Positions 283 to 7,684 are shown, numbered from the stretch's first letter. The stretch: DNA of 52,427 bases from Candidatus Heimdallarchaeota archaeon (GCA_018238545.1 JABCTC010000024.1:1-52427); one strand, 5' to 3'. The notes: generated by a model from the letters alone, not told the origin. Program-made: numbers and translations.

Positions 283-351
283 ATGAAACAAAAATATGAT
301 CCTGATGGGGATGGAGATGAGGATATTGGCCCTCCTCTATGGCGACCATAA
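283..351 (+). CDS. Micro-peptide copy 1 (22 aa): MKQKYDPDGDGDEDIGPPLWRP
   Basis: ATG..TAA with a GAGTGAT SD-like motif upstream and a T-tract downstream. Homologous to four other micro-ORFs in the window. Confidence 0.85.
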   Translation: MKQKYDPDGDGDEDIGPPLWRP

Positions 352-360
352 TTAAATATC

Positions 361-380
361 ATAATTTCTTTTTTTTTGTA
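361..380 (+). terminator. Oligo-T archaeal terminator candidate after peptide 1
   Basis: ataatttctttttttttgta lies just after the stop; a near-identical tract follows peptide 2. Confidence 0.5.
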
Positions 381-481
381 ATAGCAAAAAAACATAAATG
401 GAAAACTGCAAAGAAAATGCAAATTTCTTCAAAAAGTATTTAAAAACAAACTGTTATTTTCAATATGTTTAGGTGTCTTGA

Positions 482-2071
482 TTGTATAATGAAGCCTTGA
501 TTCTTAAGTTAGATGAAATTAATGTGAAAGAAGAGTTGCAGAGATATATAAAAGAATTGCGCGTTTTTGCCTCTAATAATAAATTCGAAAAAGGAGTTAC
601 TAAGCTCATAGAAAAGACAATAAAGAAAGCAGAAACCATTGAGGATAAAAAGTCTCTTGTAGATTTATATGAATTAAAAATATCCCAAATAGAACATCTT
701 CATGACAGTAAAGATCAGATACTACAATTAATGCTACTTATGAGAGAATTGTCTTTAGAAATCGATTATAAGGAAGGTTTAGCTCTTTCTTATAATATAG
801 AATGGTATATTGAGAAATTTAAAGGAAATAAGACTAAGAGTAAAAATGCTTTAGATTTTTCAATTAAAATTCTGTCAAATCACACAGAATATGATAACTA
901 TAGCTACGTTATTTGTTATTATTCATATGCAGTTGAACTGTGGTTGGAAGAAAATAACCCACAAAGTTCCTTTATACTTGAGAAATGTGTTGATTTCTTC
1001 CATAAAGAGGGATTTTATCGAAGTTTAGTACAATCATTATCTGTATTATTTGTCATTTATCAAGAAACTCAAAATAAGGAGGGAGCATTGAAAGCAACAC
1101 AAAAACTGTTAAGTAACAAAATTCCTTTTGACAATCTCCCTAATGACATTCAAGCTATTTCCTACTACTTCATAGGTTTAAGTCATAAATTACAACTGAA
1201 TTTATCTCTAGCAGAAAGATATTTAGAAAAAGCTAGAAAAATTCTCAAAGAAACATTTGAAAAAAGCATTTATTCATTTTATTACATACCTGTATTAACA
1301 CACCTTTCCACAGTATTAGCGTTACAAGGGAAAATTGAACAAGCTCTAGAATTAATAAAAACAGCAGAAACTCTACTTCAAGGTAAAATCTTCTCAAATT
1401 ACTCTGATCCAATAAGTAGTAGACAACTAAAACATTCTTTCAATTTAGTTAATTTTTATATCAAATCTAGGATATATGACAGTACGAGTGATGAAATTAT
1501 AGGTCTTATTGATAACATCTATACTGATTGTAAAATAAATTATAGTAATGCAATTATGCTAACAGAATTTTTACTAAATGCTAATTTAAGTCAAGAACAA
1601 TTAAAAGAGTTAAAAAGCACTACTAATGCTAGTTTGGAAAGAGTAAAACATATTATAAATTTCTTAATTGTTAAGGCAAATTCTAATAGTAGAGCAGTTA
1701 AAGAACAAAACTATTTAGATCGTATAAAAGTTCTTCAGGAAAGATTCAAGATAATCAAAATGACTTTTATCGAAAAAGCCTATGCTGACTTGTTAATTGC
1801 GCAGCAGTTATTTTCACTTAAACAATTCGCAGAAATTTATGTTATTCTTAAGAAATATAAAAATCAAATTAACAAAATAGAAGTACTAGAATTGCGCATA
1901 TTTATGGAAGGATTTATTCAAGTTGGAGCATATAAGTGCGGAGATCCTCTGGGACCAGCGTTACAGTATATGGCGATTAAAAAATGTAGAATGTATGGAT
2001 TCAGCAGATTGGAAAATACTTTGTTAAACTATCTAGATATGCAACGAACGGATGTGCTTCAATCTAAGTAA
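482..2071 (+). CDS. 529-aa all-alpha TPR-like protein, paralogue 1 (candidate peptide receptor)
   Basis: Helical repeat pattern (LSLAERYLEKA, LALQGKIEQALEL), TTG start with AGGTG SD. Full-length homology to 5890..7479 with a highly conserved C-terminus. Confidence 0.75.
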   Translation: MYNEALILKLDEINVKEELQRYIKELRVFASNNKFEKGVTKLIEKTIKKAETIEDKKSLVDLYELKISQIEHLHDSKDQILQLMLLMRELSLEIDYKEGLALSYNIEWYIEKFKGNKTKSKNALDFSIKILSNHTEYDNYSYVICYYSYAVELWLEENNPQSSFILEKCVDFFHKEGFYRSLVQSLSVLFVIYQETQNKEGALKATQKLLSNKIPFDNLPNDIQAISYYFIGLSHKLQLNLSLAERYLEKARKILKETFEKSIYSFYYIPVLTHLSTVLALQGKIEQALELIKTAETLLQGKIFSNYSDPISSRQLKHSFNLVNFYIKSRIYDSTSDEIIGLIDNIYTDCKINYSNAIMLTEFLLNANLSQEQLKELKSTTNASLERVKHIINFLIVKANSNSRAVKEQNYLDRIKVLQERFKIIKMTFIEKAYADLLIAQQLFSLKQFAEIYVILKKYKNQINKIEVLELRIFMEGFIQVGAYKCGDPLGPALQYMAIKKCRMYGFSRLENTLLNYLDMQRTDVLQSK

Positions 2072-2107
2072 TAAGTACTTACAAAAAGAAGAAATTATGA
2101 TATTTAA

Positions 2108-2176
2108 TCATGGCCTCCATAAAGAAGGTCCTATGTCATCATCACCTGGTTCAGGATCATACGTTTGTTTTATCAT
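2108..2176 (-). CDS. Micro-peptide copy 2 (22 aa): MIKQTYDPEPGDDDIGPSLWRP
   Basis: Reverse-strand ATG..TGA with GAGTGAT upstream; shares a 19-bp 3' flank with copy 1. Confidence 0.85.
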   Translation of the reverse strand: MIKQTYDPEPGDDDIGPSLWRP

Positions 2177-2429
2177 GATTCATCACTCGTTAAATTCATA
2201 CTTAGAGTATTAACAAACTGCTAAAAGAAACAAAGAAAGAAGTTGACAGAAAAACTGTATTTGTAGGAAATTATTACGCAAACAGCCTAGAATAAGCAAA
2301 ACAAGTACTTTTAATGTAATTAGAAACGTAAAAAGTAGATCTAATGCCAATCTATGCAAGAAGAAAATGGTTGGAAAAAGTTATCCCTGATAATTAAGAT
2401 TTTTATAGGGAAATGTTCTCTACTAGGTA

Positions 2430-5608: not shown

Positions 5609-5727
5609 TATTCTCTTTTTTATTTACTTTTAGTTTAACTAGTAAAAGTATTACTTTGTCACTTTTTTTCTTGGTATCTTTAGTATGTTCTTGCACTTCT
5701 ACGTATACCTTAAATGAGTGATGTATA

Positions 5728-5796
5728 ATGATGAAACAAACCTATGATCCAGATGAAGGCGATGGAGACATATTACCGCCTATGTGGCAACCTTAA
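5728..5796 (+). CDS. Micro-peptide copy 4 (22 aa): MMKQTYDPDEGDGDILPPMWQP
   Basis: ATG..TAA, GAGTGAT upstream, T-tract downstream, family consensus. Confidence 0.85.
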   Translation: MMKQTYDPDEGDGDILPPMWQP

Positions 5797-5889
5797 TTGC
5801 CATTATTTTTTTATTATGAAAATTCTAGAAAATGCAAATAGACTGCAATTTCTGCAAGCTACTTTAAATATTCATCTTTTGAAAACATA

Positions 5890-7479
5890 TTGGTGCACAA
5901 TTTGCTTATTGATGATTTGACTTCTAAAGTTGAATTTGCAAAGTCTAAAGAGAATCTTAGAGAAATCTTAGGAGATATATGTCTTCTCTCATCAAATGAA
6001 AGATCTAACAAGGAAATAATATTGTTATTAGACAAAGCAATAGAAAAAAGTGAATTATTGAATGATGAAACATCACTAGTAAATCTAATTGGTTATAAAA
6101 TCCCCATGATATACAATAACTGTGAAAATGTTTCAGAAGTGCGAAAACTAATTTCAAGAATGAAATCAATTTCTGAAAAAAATAATTATATTGATATATT
6201 GTCTTGGGCATATTCTTACATTTGGTATATCGAAAAGTTTGAGGGAAATAGGAAAAAAAGTGTTGAAGCCTTAGAACATTCTCTAGAACTGCTAGATGGG
6301 CTTTCAAATTATGATAACTATATTTACCATTTTGTTCGATATTCTTATGCGGTTGAACAATGGCTGGAAACAAGAGATTTCAAAAGTTCAGTTATCTTAG
6401 AAGAGTGTGGAAACTTCTTCTATTCAAACGGTTATTTCCAAAGTTTCGCAAAAACTTTGTGCATTTTAATAGTCATATATCAACAAACACAAAATAAAGA
6501 GAAATCATTAGCTCTTGTTAAGGACATTCTAAGTAATTACGATCTTCTTCTTAACATGCCCAAAGAAATACAATCTGTTGTGCATTATTTTATTGGTGTA
6601 GGTCATAAATTATCTTTTAATCTTAGTGAAACTGAAAATCACTTGTTAGAAGCAGAAAGAATTTTTAAACCGATATATAAGGATAGTATCTATTCAGGAT
6701 ACTATTTAATGTCTCTTTCTAATCTTACTGTAACTCATGCTTTACAAGGAAAATTGGAAATAGCTTTGAATCAATTGAAGAGGGTTGAGATGTTATTAGA
6801 AGAGGAAATAACAACAAAGAATCTTGACTCTTTCAATAAAAATCAGATAATCCATGATTTCAATCTAACTAAATTCTATATTCAATCAAAATTACATGAC
6901 TTCAATATAGAAAAATTTCAAGACTTAATTCAAACTATTGTTAGTAATGTAGGTACTTATCATAGTAATGCTATTATGTTAAGTGAATTTTTAATTAATA
7001 CTAACTTAACTAAAACAGAGTTACAAGACATAAAGAAATTAAATAATCCTAGCACTAAAAGAGTAGAACACATTCTAGACTTCCTAATATGCCAGGCAAG
7101 TGATGATGATAAGCAAACTCTTCAGAGGATAAACGCTCTCAAAAGAAGACCTGTTGAGGAAAGAATGACTAATGTTGAAAGAGCATTTGCAGATTTGCTA
7201 GCAGCACAAGAATATTACAAAATCAACCGTTTTGCAGAAATATATCCTTTGTTAAAGAAATATGAAAATCAAACTCAAAAAATAGAAGTTCTAGAATTGC
7301 GTGTTTTCATGGAAGCTTTTATCCAGGTTGGTGCTTTCAAGAATGGTGATCCTCTAGGACCTGCTCTCCAATACATGGCTATCAAAAAATGCAGGAATTA
7401 TGGTTTCAGTAGATTAGAAAATAAATTGTTAGACTATTTAGATATGCAACGAAGAGATATTCGTTCTCTAGCAATATAA
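5890..7479 (+). CDS. 529-aa all-alpha TPR-like protein, paralogue 2 (start may be TTG 5902)
   Basis: Homologous to 482..2071 throughout (WYIEKFxGN, YSYAVExWLE, SNAIML, KIEVLELR..GDPLGPALQYMAIKKCR). Confidence 0.75.
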   Translation: MVHNLLIDDLTSKVEFAKSKENLREILGDICLLSSNERSNKEIILLLDKAIEKSELLNDETSLVNLIGYKIPMIYNNCENVSEVRKLISRMKSISEKNNYIDILSWAYSYIWYIEKFEGNRKKSVEALEHSLELLDGLSNYDNYIYHFVRYSYAVEQWLETRDFKSSVILEECGNFFYSNGYFQSFAKTLCILIVIYQQTQNKEKSLALVKDILSNYDLLLNMPKEIQSVVHYFIGVGHKLSFNLSETENHLLEAERIFKPIYKDSIYSGYYLMSLSNLTVTHALQGKLEIALNQLKRVEMLLEEEITTKNLDSFNKNQIIHDFNLTKFYIQSKLHDFNIEKFQDLIQTIVSNVGTYHSNAIMLSEFLINTNLTKTELQDIKKLNNPSTKRVEHILDFLICQASDDDKQTLQRINALKRRPVEERMTNVERAFADLLAAQEYYKINRFAEIYPLLKKYENQTQKIEVLELRVFMEAFIQVGAFKNGDPLGPALQYMAIKKCRNYGFSRLENKLLDYLDMQRRDIRSLAI

Positions 7480-7521
7480 CTAGGATTGATTACCTCTTAC
7501 GTTGTTATCCTTCTCAATAAA

Positions 7522-7557
7522 CTAAATAGCTGTAAATGATTCTACTGTTTCTTTGTC
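7522..7557 (+). repeat. Near-exact copy (35/36) of the 3' end of the M42 aminopeptidase gene
   Basis: ctaaatagctgtaaatgattctactgtttctttgtc versus 7738..7773. Confidence 0.9.
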
Positions 7558-7627
7558 ATTCAATTTCTTTATTGGTTTAGTATCTTCTTCATATTTATAA
7601 GAATAAGTAGCTGCGTGATAAACAATA

Positions 7628-7684
7628 GTGAAACAGAAGTATGATCCTGATGAGGGAGACGGTGATATTCTACCCCCACTTTGA
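7628..7684 (+). pseudogene. Micro-peptide copy 5, degenerate: (V)KQKYDPDEGDGDILPPL*
   Basis: The start-codon position reads ATA, the conserved Trp codon reads TGA, and the SD-like motif is changed to GCGTGAT. Confidence 0.75.

Follow-up and report, generated by a model that had tools for sequence, protein, structure and literature searches.

Heimdallarchaeia of the AB_125 family carry paired genes for a micro-peptide and a TPR protein, and very probably the peptide binds its own TPR partner directly, with neither processing nor export, as judged from covariation between the two. Computational analysis established the pairing itself, protein-level selection on the peptides, the TPR fold of the partner, a covariation code, orthogonal specificities and the decay of orphan peptides. 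The peptide genes fall below usual gene-calling limits and are normally overlooked.

The window (the whole analysed stretch of 52,427 nucleotides from a Candidatus Heimdallarchaeota archaeon, JABCTC010000024.1) contains five micro-ORFs with the starts and sequences given in the original prediction, at 283 (+), 2176 (−), 5537 (+), 5728 (+) and 7628 (+, truncated). It also contains the two paralogous 529-codon TPR-like ORFs described there (482–2071 and 5890–7479; 46% identical), and each does have peptide genes on both sides: a co-oriented upstream and a convergent downstream copy for TPR A, two upstream copies and a broken downstream copy for TPR B. The first peptide promoter (211–239, +) consists of TGTCA, a pyrimidine tract and a TATA box (TTTAAATA), and is followed by a Shine-Dalgarno-like GAGTGA (271–276, +), which is complementary to the 16S 3′ end GAUCACCUCCU and precedes nearly all peptide ORFs. 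Peptide 1 (283–351, +; 22 aa), with a W-R-P-stop end and a T-tract after it, is cognate to TPR A, a type I solenoid of about 529 aa (482–2071, +) with its own TATA box near 447. Peptide 2 (2108–2176, −; 22 aa) is convergent, has its own TGTCA at 2244–2248 and also ends in W-R-P, with one PP to PS change; its W+1 residue matches TPR A, and peptides 1 and 2 have almost the same 3′ flank. Peptide 3 (5537–5608, +; 23 aa; A-W-T-P-N end) fits neither TPR B nor any other TPR found in the source genome. Peptide 4 (5728–5796, +; 22 aa; M-W-Q-P end) is cognate to TPR B (5890–7479, +), a type I solenoid of 528–529 aa. The TTG starts of both 529-codon ORFs are uncertain, and TPR B probably starts at GTG 5893. 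Directly 3′ of the TPR B stop lies a degenerate copy of the 16S rRNA 3′ tail (7483–7503, +), read as a duplication scar; 17–18 of its 21 nt are identical to the tail, which is weak evidence taken alone. Alignment identified the next unit, a promoter with degenerate peptide 5 (7552–7684, +; ORF 7628–7684, GTG start, stop at the Trp codon), as a duplicate of the 5464–5608 unit. A partial extra peptide promoter with no ORF is located at 7730–7797 (+).

The micro-ORFs encode 18–25 aa with the consensus YDPxxGD-x-x-I-x-PP-x-W-x-P. A peptide HMM detected 13 copies in the source genome (E≤5×10−6; next match E=8), and their clustering is not due to chance because each of the 13 has a family TPR gene no further than about 0.5 kb away. 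No convincing copy of the motif was found in the host proteins of this genome. Selection at the protein level, first suggested by synonymous codon changes, was confirmed on 93 peptides: mean entropy at codon positions 1, 2 and 3 was 0.54, 0.50 and 1.37 bits, and pN/pS was 0.28 and thus not near 1, although these values overstate conservation to some extent, as the peptides were picked by HMM and an intact W-x-P end. For the four intact copies of the window, pN was 0.18 and pS 0.68. A TGTCA-like motif was present upstream of 82 of 86 peptide genes, with the TATA box 21–23 nt further on, and the genome-wide top matches of this promoter motif were mostly peptide genes. Peptide genes carry their own promoter, Shine-Dalgarno site and T-tract, and a separate TATA box precedes the TPR gene. 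The mean net charge of the peptides is −3.8, while type I TPRs average +4. As predicted, the peptides have no signal sequence: neither an export signal nor a hydrophobic stretch was detected (best 7-residue hydropathy: median 0.79, maximum 1.64), and 2–7 residues stand ahead of the core. The acidic DxDxGD loop did not hold up as a family feature, being present in only 33 of the 93 peptides, and a Ca2+-binding loop is unsupported, with the canonical DxDxDG in 6/93 and no conservation of the motif.

Peptide matches occurred in 24 of 399 Asgard genomes, all of them from the AB_125 family of Heimdallarchaeia; the other 375 genomes, many of which are incomplete, yielded none. Peptides were confined to genomes with type I or type II TPR genes, and the expected co-occurrence was borne out, an adjacent peptide being found for 16/16 type II genes and, where upstream DNA was available, for 70/70 type I genes. 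The distance between the two genes was 48–180 nt. Distant TPR relatives had no adjacent peptide (0/14), and the type III TPR genes, which lack a peptide, had no comparably composed small ORFs next to them. Type II TPR genes are single-copy, stable and rRNA-adjacent, and their peptide is mostly convergent. Among the neighbouring genes in general there was no exporter, peptidase or conserved set of biosynthetic genes; an M42 peptidase was nearby in 8 genomes, and 6 had an ABC ATPase there.

The predicted structure of TPR A is all helical (AlphaFold pLDDT 90), with weak TPR_12/TPR_2 domain matches and with TPR folds among the structure matches; TPR_12 matches below cut-off were obtained for 21 of 84 family members. 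Type I proteins have about 520–535 aa and roughly 11 helix pairs, and type II proteins about 560 aa. We found neither an HTH nor an enzyme domain in the TPR partner. Pfam, NCBIfam and fold searches revealed no known toxic or catalytic domain, an absence that is compatible with a new enzyme type. NCBIfam, PADLOC and PDB profile searches gave nothing specific, the ESM Atlas returned only generic TPR or unnamed clusters, and no relative was found in viral contigs. The last repeats of type I proteins (residues 430–515) are very conserved. This conservation is at the protein level because synonymous identity is flat along the gene (0.53–0.58 in every segment), and gene conversion was rejected as its cause on the same ground. 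Folded alone, the C-terminal 160 residues form more TPR (best Z 12.8, in a range common for helical repeats). Four Asn residues are invariant (N32, N116, N321 and N382), and one of them may correspond to the conserved groove Asn of RapF (N227).

The A helices form the concave surface of TPR solenoids (PMC3601957). Using 66 non-redundant peptide–TPR pairs, we found that 29 of the 45 top APC-corrected columns fell into A helices (34% expected; p=2×10−5) and that peptide order ran antiparallel to solenoid position (rho −0.77, p=0.016). Covarying pairs include Phe at W+1 with Gly109 and C-terminal Asn with Lys68, and the paired residues complement one another chemically, with Arg or His going with Glu71, Phe with Gly109 and Asp with His/Lys. 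In independent tree pairs the residues changed the same way in 7/7 cases for F–G109, 6/6 for R–N105, 6/6 for Q–W102, 8/8 for terminal N–K68, 5/5 for W-7 G–D319 and 5/6 for W-4 T–N267. For held-out metagenome pairs, 79 of 80 calls were right (positives: 15/16). Seven pocket residues predicted W+1 in about 57 of 66 leave-one-out cases, with the pocket columns chosen on the same data, whereas seven neighbouring columns taken at random managed 17 and chance alone would give 8. This far poorer performance of random neighbours, together with W-6 and W-7 mapping to residues 229–319 and segment identity not rising for W-6, led us to discard pure linkage as an explanation of the covariation. Linkage nevertheless contributes to the signals at W+1 and W+3, as an N-terminal block recombines with the peptide 3′ end (17 vs 39 tree changes). 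The rules for W-1, W-4, DP+1 and DP+2 weaken under phylogeny control; the rule linking DP+2 to residue 426 did not survive the test on independent pairs, and we regard it as phylogenetic. At pocket positions 64, 68, 71, 102, 105, 106 and 109, TPR A has E, S, E, L, N, I and Y (Arg-class), which fits peptide 1, and TPR B has G, P, Y, W, S, Y and Y (Gln-class), which fits peptide 4; Asp319 of TPR B also pairs with Gly at W-7 of peptide 4. Position-specific covariation on groove helices suggests that the proposed binding of peptide to TPR very probably takes place. Complex prediction from the TPR and peptide alignments gave 0.01, 0.33 and 0.00 in three runs against a mark of 0.32, with 6–7 probably untranslated upstream residues included in the first peptide row, and was counted neither for nor against binding.

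Only the nearest upstream peptide is cognate, and extra peptides are orphans that are often decayed. The pocket fitted 56 of 66 nearest upstream peptides, 2/25 in second and third upstream position and 2/17 downstream; peptide 3 is thus an orphan, because only the peptide immediately upstream is cognate. Intact ORFs were found for 84 of 89 cognate peptides versus 34 of 57 orphans (p=4×10−7). Every intact type I TPR had a peptide ORF upstream, and for about seven TPRs that are broken the peptide is still intact. Any model would to some degree predict earlier breakage of the TPR, because the TPR presents a roughly 20-fold larger mutation target. A damaged nearest peptide beside an intact TPR was seen in two or three cases (G000 C86, which is a read-through, and the loci L055 and L050); L055 and L050 each have a second, convergent peptide copy.

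In all 11 genomes with 16S or 23S located in the fetched data, a family TPR lay within about 3 kb, and significant copies of the 16S 3′-flank or spacer occurred just after 23 of 71 type I genes. Spacer copies begin either at the 16S tail or within the 3′ arm of the processing stem, some 10 nt from where that arm starts; no defined cleavage site could be tied to these starts, which leaves RNA-mediated duplication conjectural. New specificities may have arisen when units were duplicated in tandem, notably behind the 16S gene, and when a block with the peptide 3′ end and the TPR N-terminus was swapped.

We propose, at about even chances, that each cassette is a private intracellular lock-and-key pair in which the peptide holds the TPR off. 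The peptide would be made from its own short transcript, and its 16–17-residue core (Y-D-P … P-P-x-W-x-P-(x)-COOH) would run antiparallel, in extended form, along the concave groove of its own TPR, with the C-terminus at the N-terminal repeats (residues 64–109) and the acidic middle at residues 229–330. When the short-lived peptide runs down, the type I repeats 430–515 would act on a shared host target, and the outcome would be a type-II-TA-like or poison-antidote module. Whether the peptide is an antidote keeping the TPR off is evenly balanced in our judgement: the separate promoters of peptide and TPR, unlike most type II TA operons, argue against an antidote, and the type II gene, being stable, single-copy and next to rRNA, resembles a housekeeping gene more than a selfish element. 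Tentatively, AB_125 Heimdallarchaeia may hold undescribed peptide-locked TPR effectors, seeded from the rRNA locus and matched to non-secreted micro-peptides by a combinatorial, readable code, that serve as poison-antidote or incompatibility loci or as translation-shut-off sensors. Self/non-self incompatibility would act when cytoplasm or DNA is exchanged.

Signalling akin to RRNPP, in which the peptide exits leaderless or between touching cells the TPR is a receptor acting Rap-like on a protein target and the many specificities serve kin discrimination, is unlikely, though the likeliest of the alternatives. The best fold matches include Rap, NprR, AimR and PlcR (Z 14–19), Rap-Phr systems likewise gather paralogues and duplicate peptide genes in specificity shifts (PMC5199041), and groove specificity residues act alike in Rap-type receptors (PMC3601957). 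However, the fold matches to APC5 and APPBP2 are as good as those to Rap, the peptides have neither signal peptide nor hydrophobic core, a sister genus with only 2–3 residues before the core has no room for a leader, and no exporter or peptidase is a general neighbour. Trimming to 5–10 aa is contradicted by covariation that spans the whole peptide, and the orphans here are peptides, whereas those of B. subtilis are receptors. Slightly less likely again is a beneficial intracellular sensor, with a Pro-rich, short-lived peptide reporting translation or ribosome capacity to a TPR that regulates ribosome biogenesis or growth; the peptide of such a sensor could be an activator, not an inhibitor. 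The constant rRNA proximity (11/11 genomes) would fit, as would the single-copy type II gene that nearly always has a peptide, and the C-terminal covariation suggests binding restricted to a properly terminated peptide. A sensor, however, leaves unexplained why genomes retain, break and reshuffle 1–10 paralogues that each have an orthogonal key, and the scars after 23/71 type I genes offer a historical account of the rRNA link.

The RiPP-like substrate of the original prediction, with the TPR as a new modifying enzyme, is improbable: short precursor-like genes do lie directly upstream, often several in tandem, but the TPR is all-helical with no catalytic fold or domain found, its groove residues track the variable peptide positions instead of tolerating them, extra peptides mismatch the neighbouring protein, and conserved biosynthetic neighbours are absent. 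Small Pro-rich peptides can block ribosomes, and with the rRNA genes close by the peptide might be the toxin (e.g. a proline-rich ribosome binder) and the TPR its immunity protein. This reversal is a shade less probable still, given peptides that stay intact beside broken TPRs and the persistence of 34 intact orphans, for 25 of which the loci sampled from their own, incomplete genome included no cognate matching at W+1. A cis-acting uORF or arrest peptide controlling the TPR gene would suit the position 48–180 nt upstream, the PP motifs and the Pro before the stop, but the T-tract after the peptide, the separate TATA box before the TPR and the mostly convergent type II peptides speak against it; as covariation with groove residues 64–330 is impossible for a cis mechanism, this least probable reading is largely refuted.

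The preferred lock-and-key reading would supply natural orthogonal pairs by the dozen, with a code that is read position by position and can be tested directly, and a ready source of orthogonal peptide–protein pairs for engineering. The literature assigns TPR and cognate-peptide pairs (RRNPP) to Gram-positive bacteria and their elements, and our literature search, which covered few subscription journals, found no report of a TPR–peptide pair for Asgard archaea.

RRNPP systems combine a propeptide of 10–100 aa, SEC-secreted or SHP-like, with a directly neighbouring receptor of 250–500 aa that contains TPRs (PMC10075063). Our peptides have 18–25 aa and lie 48–180 nt from a partner whose TPR fold and groove covariation point to peptide binding, but they have no SEC signal and are not SHP-like hydrophobic, and the partner has about 520–560 aa (validated receptors: 285–473 aa). 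Because the peptides lack an export signal we do not class the pairs as RRNPP, and a PDB profile search gave no RRNPP match to the TPR family; the predicted likeness thus stands as a structural analogy and fails on secretion. Shared with Rap-Phr and the other RRNPP systems (NprR, PlcR, AimR and Rgg/RopB) are the TPR solenoid beside a small peptide gene, the probable extended peptide in an A-helix groove, anchor and specificity residues, many orthogonal paralogues and duplicated peptide genes; an HTH is missing from Rap as well. Unlike RRNPP, the pairs are archaeal, a whole 16–17-residue core is read instead of a processed 5–10-aa pheromone, the receptor is longer at about 530 aa, the peptide gene has a promoter of its own and stands upstream of the TPR gene or convergent to it, it is peptides that become orphans, and no match was found at the sequence level.

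Type II toxin-antitoxin or toxin-immunity pairs resemble the system in the small acidic, probably disordered partner upstream of a larger basic protein, in the probable paralogue-specific interfaces, in orphan small partners and in frequent loss of the large gene. They differ from it in that here no known toxin domain is present, the 20-aa partner has no DNA-binding part and promoters are separate; in place of a bicistronic autoregulated operon we found sequence motifs for a T-tract and a separate TATA box, with no DNA-binding domain detected. The long TPR groove is also shared with eukaryotic solenoids (LGN/Pins-Insc, APPBP2, APC5, KLC). APC5, APPBP2 and Pins match the fold at Z 16–21 (APC5 aligns over 462 residues at 8.2 Å), a likeness that among TPRs is no proof of orthology. 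LGN binds long extended peptides, and APPBP2 is a C-degron receptor that reads free C-termini. Eukaryotic cells make extensive use of TPR grooves as readers of short linear motifs and C-termini, and Heimdallarchaeia are among their closest prokaryotic relatives. Unlike the eukaryotic ligands, which are motifs inside larger proteins, the archaeal ligand would be the product of a dedicated micro-gene.

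All five micro-ORFs of the original prediction (283+, 2176-, 5537+, 5728+ and a degenerate copy at 7628+) and both 529-codon ORFs (TPR A, 482-2071; TPR B, 5890-7479; both on the + strand) were found as stated in the window, which is the start of a contig from a 3.6 Mb genome. Relatives with the same genes, AB_125 among them, bear the name Heimdallarchaeota. A peptide HMM detected 13 copies in the source genome (next match only at E=8), all adjoining a TPR gene, either one of six close paralogues or a single distant one. The consensus (n=93) was M-x(1-6)-[YFH]-D-P-x-x-G-D-x-x-I-x-P-P-x-W-x-P-(x). 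Protein-level selection, claimed from codon usage, was borne out by a pN/pS of 0.28, somewhat flattering since these 93 peptides were picked for an intact end, and by codon position 3 being the most variable.

Each peptide gene looks like a separate transcription unit: TGTCA is followed by a pyrimidine tract and, at 21-23 nt, a TATA box; then come GAGTGA as Shine-Dalgarno site, the ORF and a T-tract. The TPR genes are preceded by a TATA box of their own and often start with TTG or GTG. The TGTCA-pyrimidine-TATA pattern also occurs at a few non-peptide loci (L187, L188, L189, L191), and a single regulon may be involved. Decayed peptide genes whose TGTCA-TATA promoter is intact lie between the 16S and 23S genes of the source genome, which are divergent (L074:12547-12680), 3' of the 23S gene in another genome, G002 (L138:7153-7194, resembling the L074 copy), and ahead of a thioesterase-like gene (L186, G000:C30:4753).

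Outside the source genome, the TPR profile matched 27 of 29 genomes of the family, whereas the rest of the class gave next to no matches; no copy turned up in viral contigs. The peptide profile matched 24/399 Asgard genomes, in two genera, and the expected co-occurrence held: peptides were present solely where type I or type II genes exist. These types are separated by the tree from each other and from peptide-less relatives. Type I proteins, about 530 aa long, are encoded by one to about ten genes per genome; in all 70 cases with enough upstream DNA, one to four co-oriented peptide genes lay upstream, the nearest 48-180 nt away. The single-copy type II genes (about 560 aa) had a peptide in 16/16, mostly convergent, and other relatives in 0/14.

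In all 11 genomes for which an rRNA gene was located in the fetched data, 16S or 23S lay no more than about 3 kb from a family TPR gene; type II adjoins an rRNA gene, and in several genomes type I arrays follow 16S. This proximity raises a functional tie to ribosomes as a rival explanation. We read it rather as a trace of duplication history: a copy of the 16S tail, the pre-16S stem 3' arm or adjoining spacer DNA stands 3' of 23 of 71 type I genes (a weak remnant for TPR B), for the most part no further than about 20 nt from the stop. These copies would be scars left when a cassette behind 16S was duplicated in tandem. A second recurrent type I site lies directly 5' of tRNA-Leu(GAG), with tRNA-Glu about 2 kb before (L090, L092, L093, L112, L114, L115). 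The type II TPR of genome G001 is flanked by two inverted-repeat peptide genes (approximately L031:12366-12487 and 14275-14396), identical over about 115 nt, roughly from predicted transcription start to T-tract; its orientation to 16S is opposite to that in other genomes, suggesting inversion or conversion between the repeats. The last helix of 16S rRNA contains short hairpin insertions, probably small introns: about 33 nt in the source genome (L074:10306-10380), at another site in G001 (L031) and two in G008 (L042).

Elsewhere in the window, a HEAT/PBS-lyase repeat gene (2430-3848) appears split by one in-frame TGA (3366-3368), after which the ORF keeps the same frame. Two hairpins at 5256-5380 with arms ATCTTACCAC / GTGGTAAGAT, possibly a REP-like or terminator element, lie 3' of a winged-helix gene; in other genomes, many TPR genes are followed by this hairpin too. 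The gene for the PolD large subunit (24295-29475, 1726 aa) presumably carries an intein at the conserved KRRN/CDGDED site, and an ORF that we take to be TnpB-like (51258-52427) runs past the contig end.

The large protein is predicted to be an all-helical solenoid (pLDDT 90). TPR proteins gave its best structural matches: APC5 (Z 21.2, 462 aligned, 8.2 A), phage Rap (Z 19.3), APPBP2 (19.0), RapI, NprR, MalT-TPR and Pins. Neither an HTH nor an enzyme domain was detected. The C-terminal 160 residues consist of additional TPR repeats and are by far the best-conserved part of type I (pairwise identity 68-76% at 450-500 vs 30-49% before residue 425). Since synonymous identity stays level from one end of the gene to the other, this reflects protein-level selection.

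For 66 peptide-TPR pairs below 75% identity, we scored each variable peptide position against each TPR column by mutual information with a shuffled baseline and APC. With numbering relative to the invariant Trp, W+1 and W+3 covaried with residues 64, 68, 71, 105, 106 and 109, W-1 with 180 and 184, W-5 with 151, 155 and 188, W-4 with 267, W-6 with 229, 233 and 274, and W-7 with 319 and 236, so that the peptide order is antiparallel to the solenoid (rho -0.77). These columns have helical spacing and fall in the first helix of each repeat in 29/45 cases vs 34% expected (p=2e-5; register set by the Pfam TPR match at 225-254); in TPRs, first helices line the concave groove (PMC3601957). The chemistry fits complementary pairing: W+1 Phe occurs with Gly109 (11/11), Arg and His with Glu71, Gln with Trp102 (8/8), terminal Asn with Lys68 (18/18), W-7 Gly with Asp319 (7/7) and W-6 Asp with His, Asn or Arg274. 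Within the window, the Arg pocket of TPR A goes with the W-R-P end of peptide 283, and the Gln pocket and Asp319 of TPR B with W-Q-P and a W-7 Gly in peptide 5728.

The W+1 and W+3 signals are genuinely confounded by linkage, as the N-terminal block moves with the peptide 3' end; 17 changes were counted on the N-terminal tree vs 39 on the whole-protein tree. Seven pocket residues nevertheless predicted W+1 in about 57/66 pairs, vs 17/66 from random neighbours and 34/66 from all 65 other variable N-terminal columns, and linkage cannot single out the TPR positions tied to W-6 and W-7. On a tree built without the rule columns, independent pairs followed the rules in 7/7, 6/6, 6/6, 8/8 and 5/5 cases. 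Eight metagenome pairs that were retrieved once the signal had emerged are 44-74% identical to earlier ones and belong to the 66; they obeyed ten rules in 79/80 calls (positives 15/16). The W-1, W-4 and N-terminal rules were weaker. The rule for DP+2 failed the tree test.

The pocket fits the nearest upstream peptide in 56/66 cases, one further upstream in 2/25 and a downstream one in 2/17. Such cognate peptides are intact in 84/89 cases (two of the five flagged were false alarms), whereas 34 of the 57 peptides without a TPR directly behind are intact. Every intact type I TPR has a peptide ORF upstream, and about seven broken TPRs still have a good peptide. Selection thus maintains the peptide while its TPR is present. 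An antidote predicts this pattern, though part of it comes from the TPR being a bigger target for mutation, and the peptide may instead be an obligatory activating ligand. From the covariation, we consider it very probable that the unprocessed peptide binds its own TPR within the cell, lying along the groove. That it would thereby keep the TPR inactive, leaving the conserved C-terminal repeats free for a shared putative target, we rate as an even chance.

The cassettes are real, lineage-specific and, as far as our literature search reached, undescribed, and their recognition code is unusually clean and testable. They differ from RRNPP systems in secretion and size (criteria of PMC10075063) and are therefore not classed among them; at the level of binding they would work like Rap-Phr.
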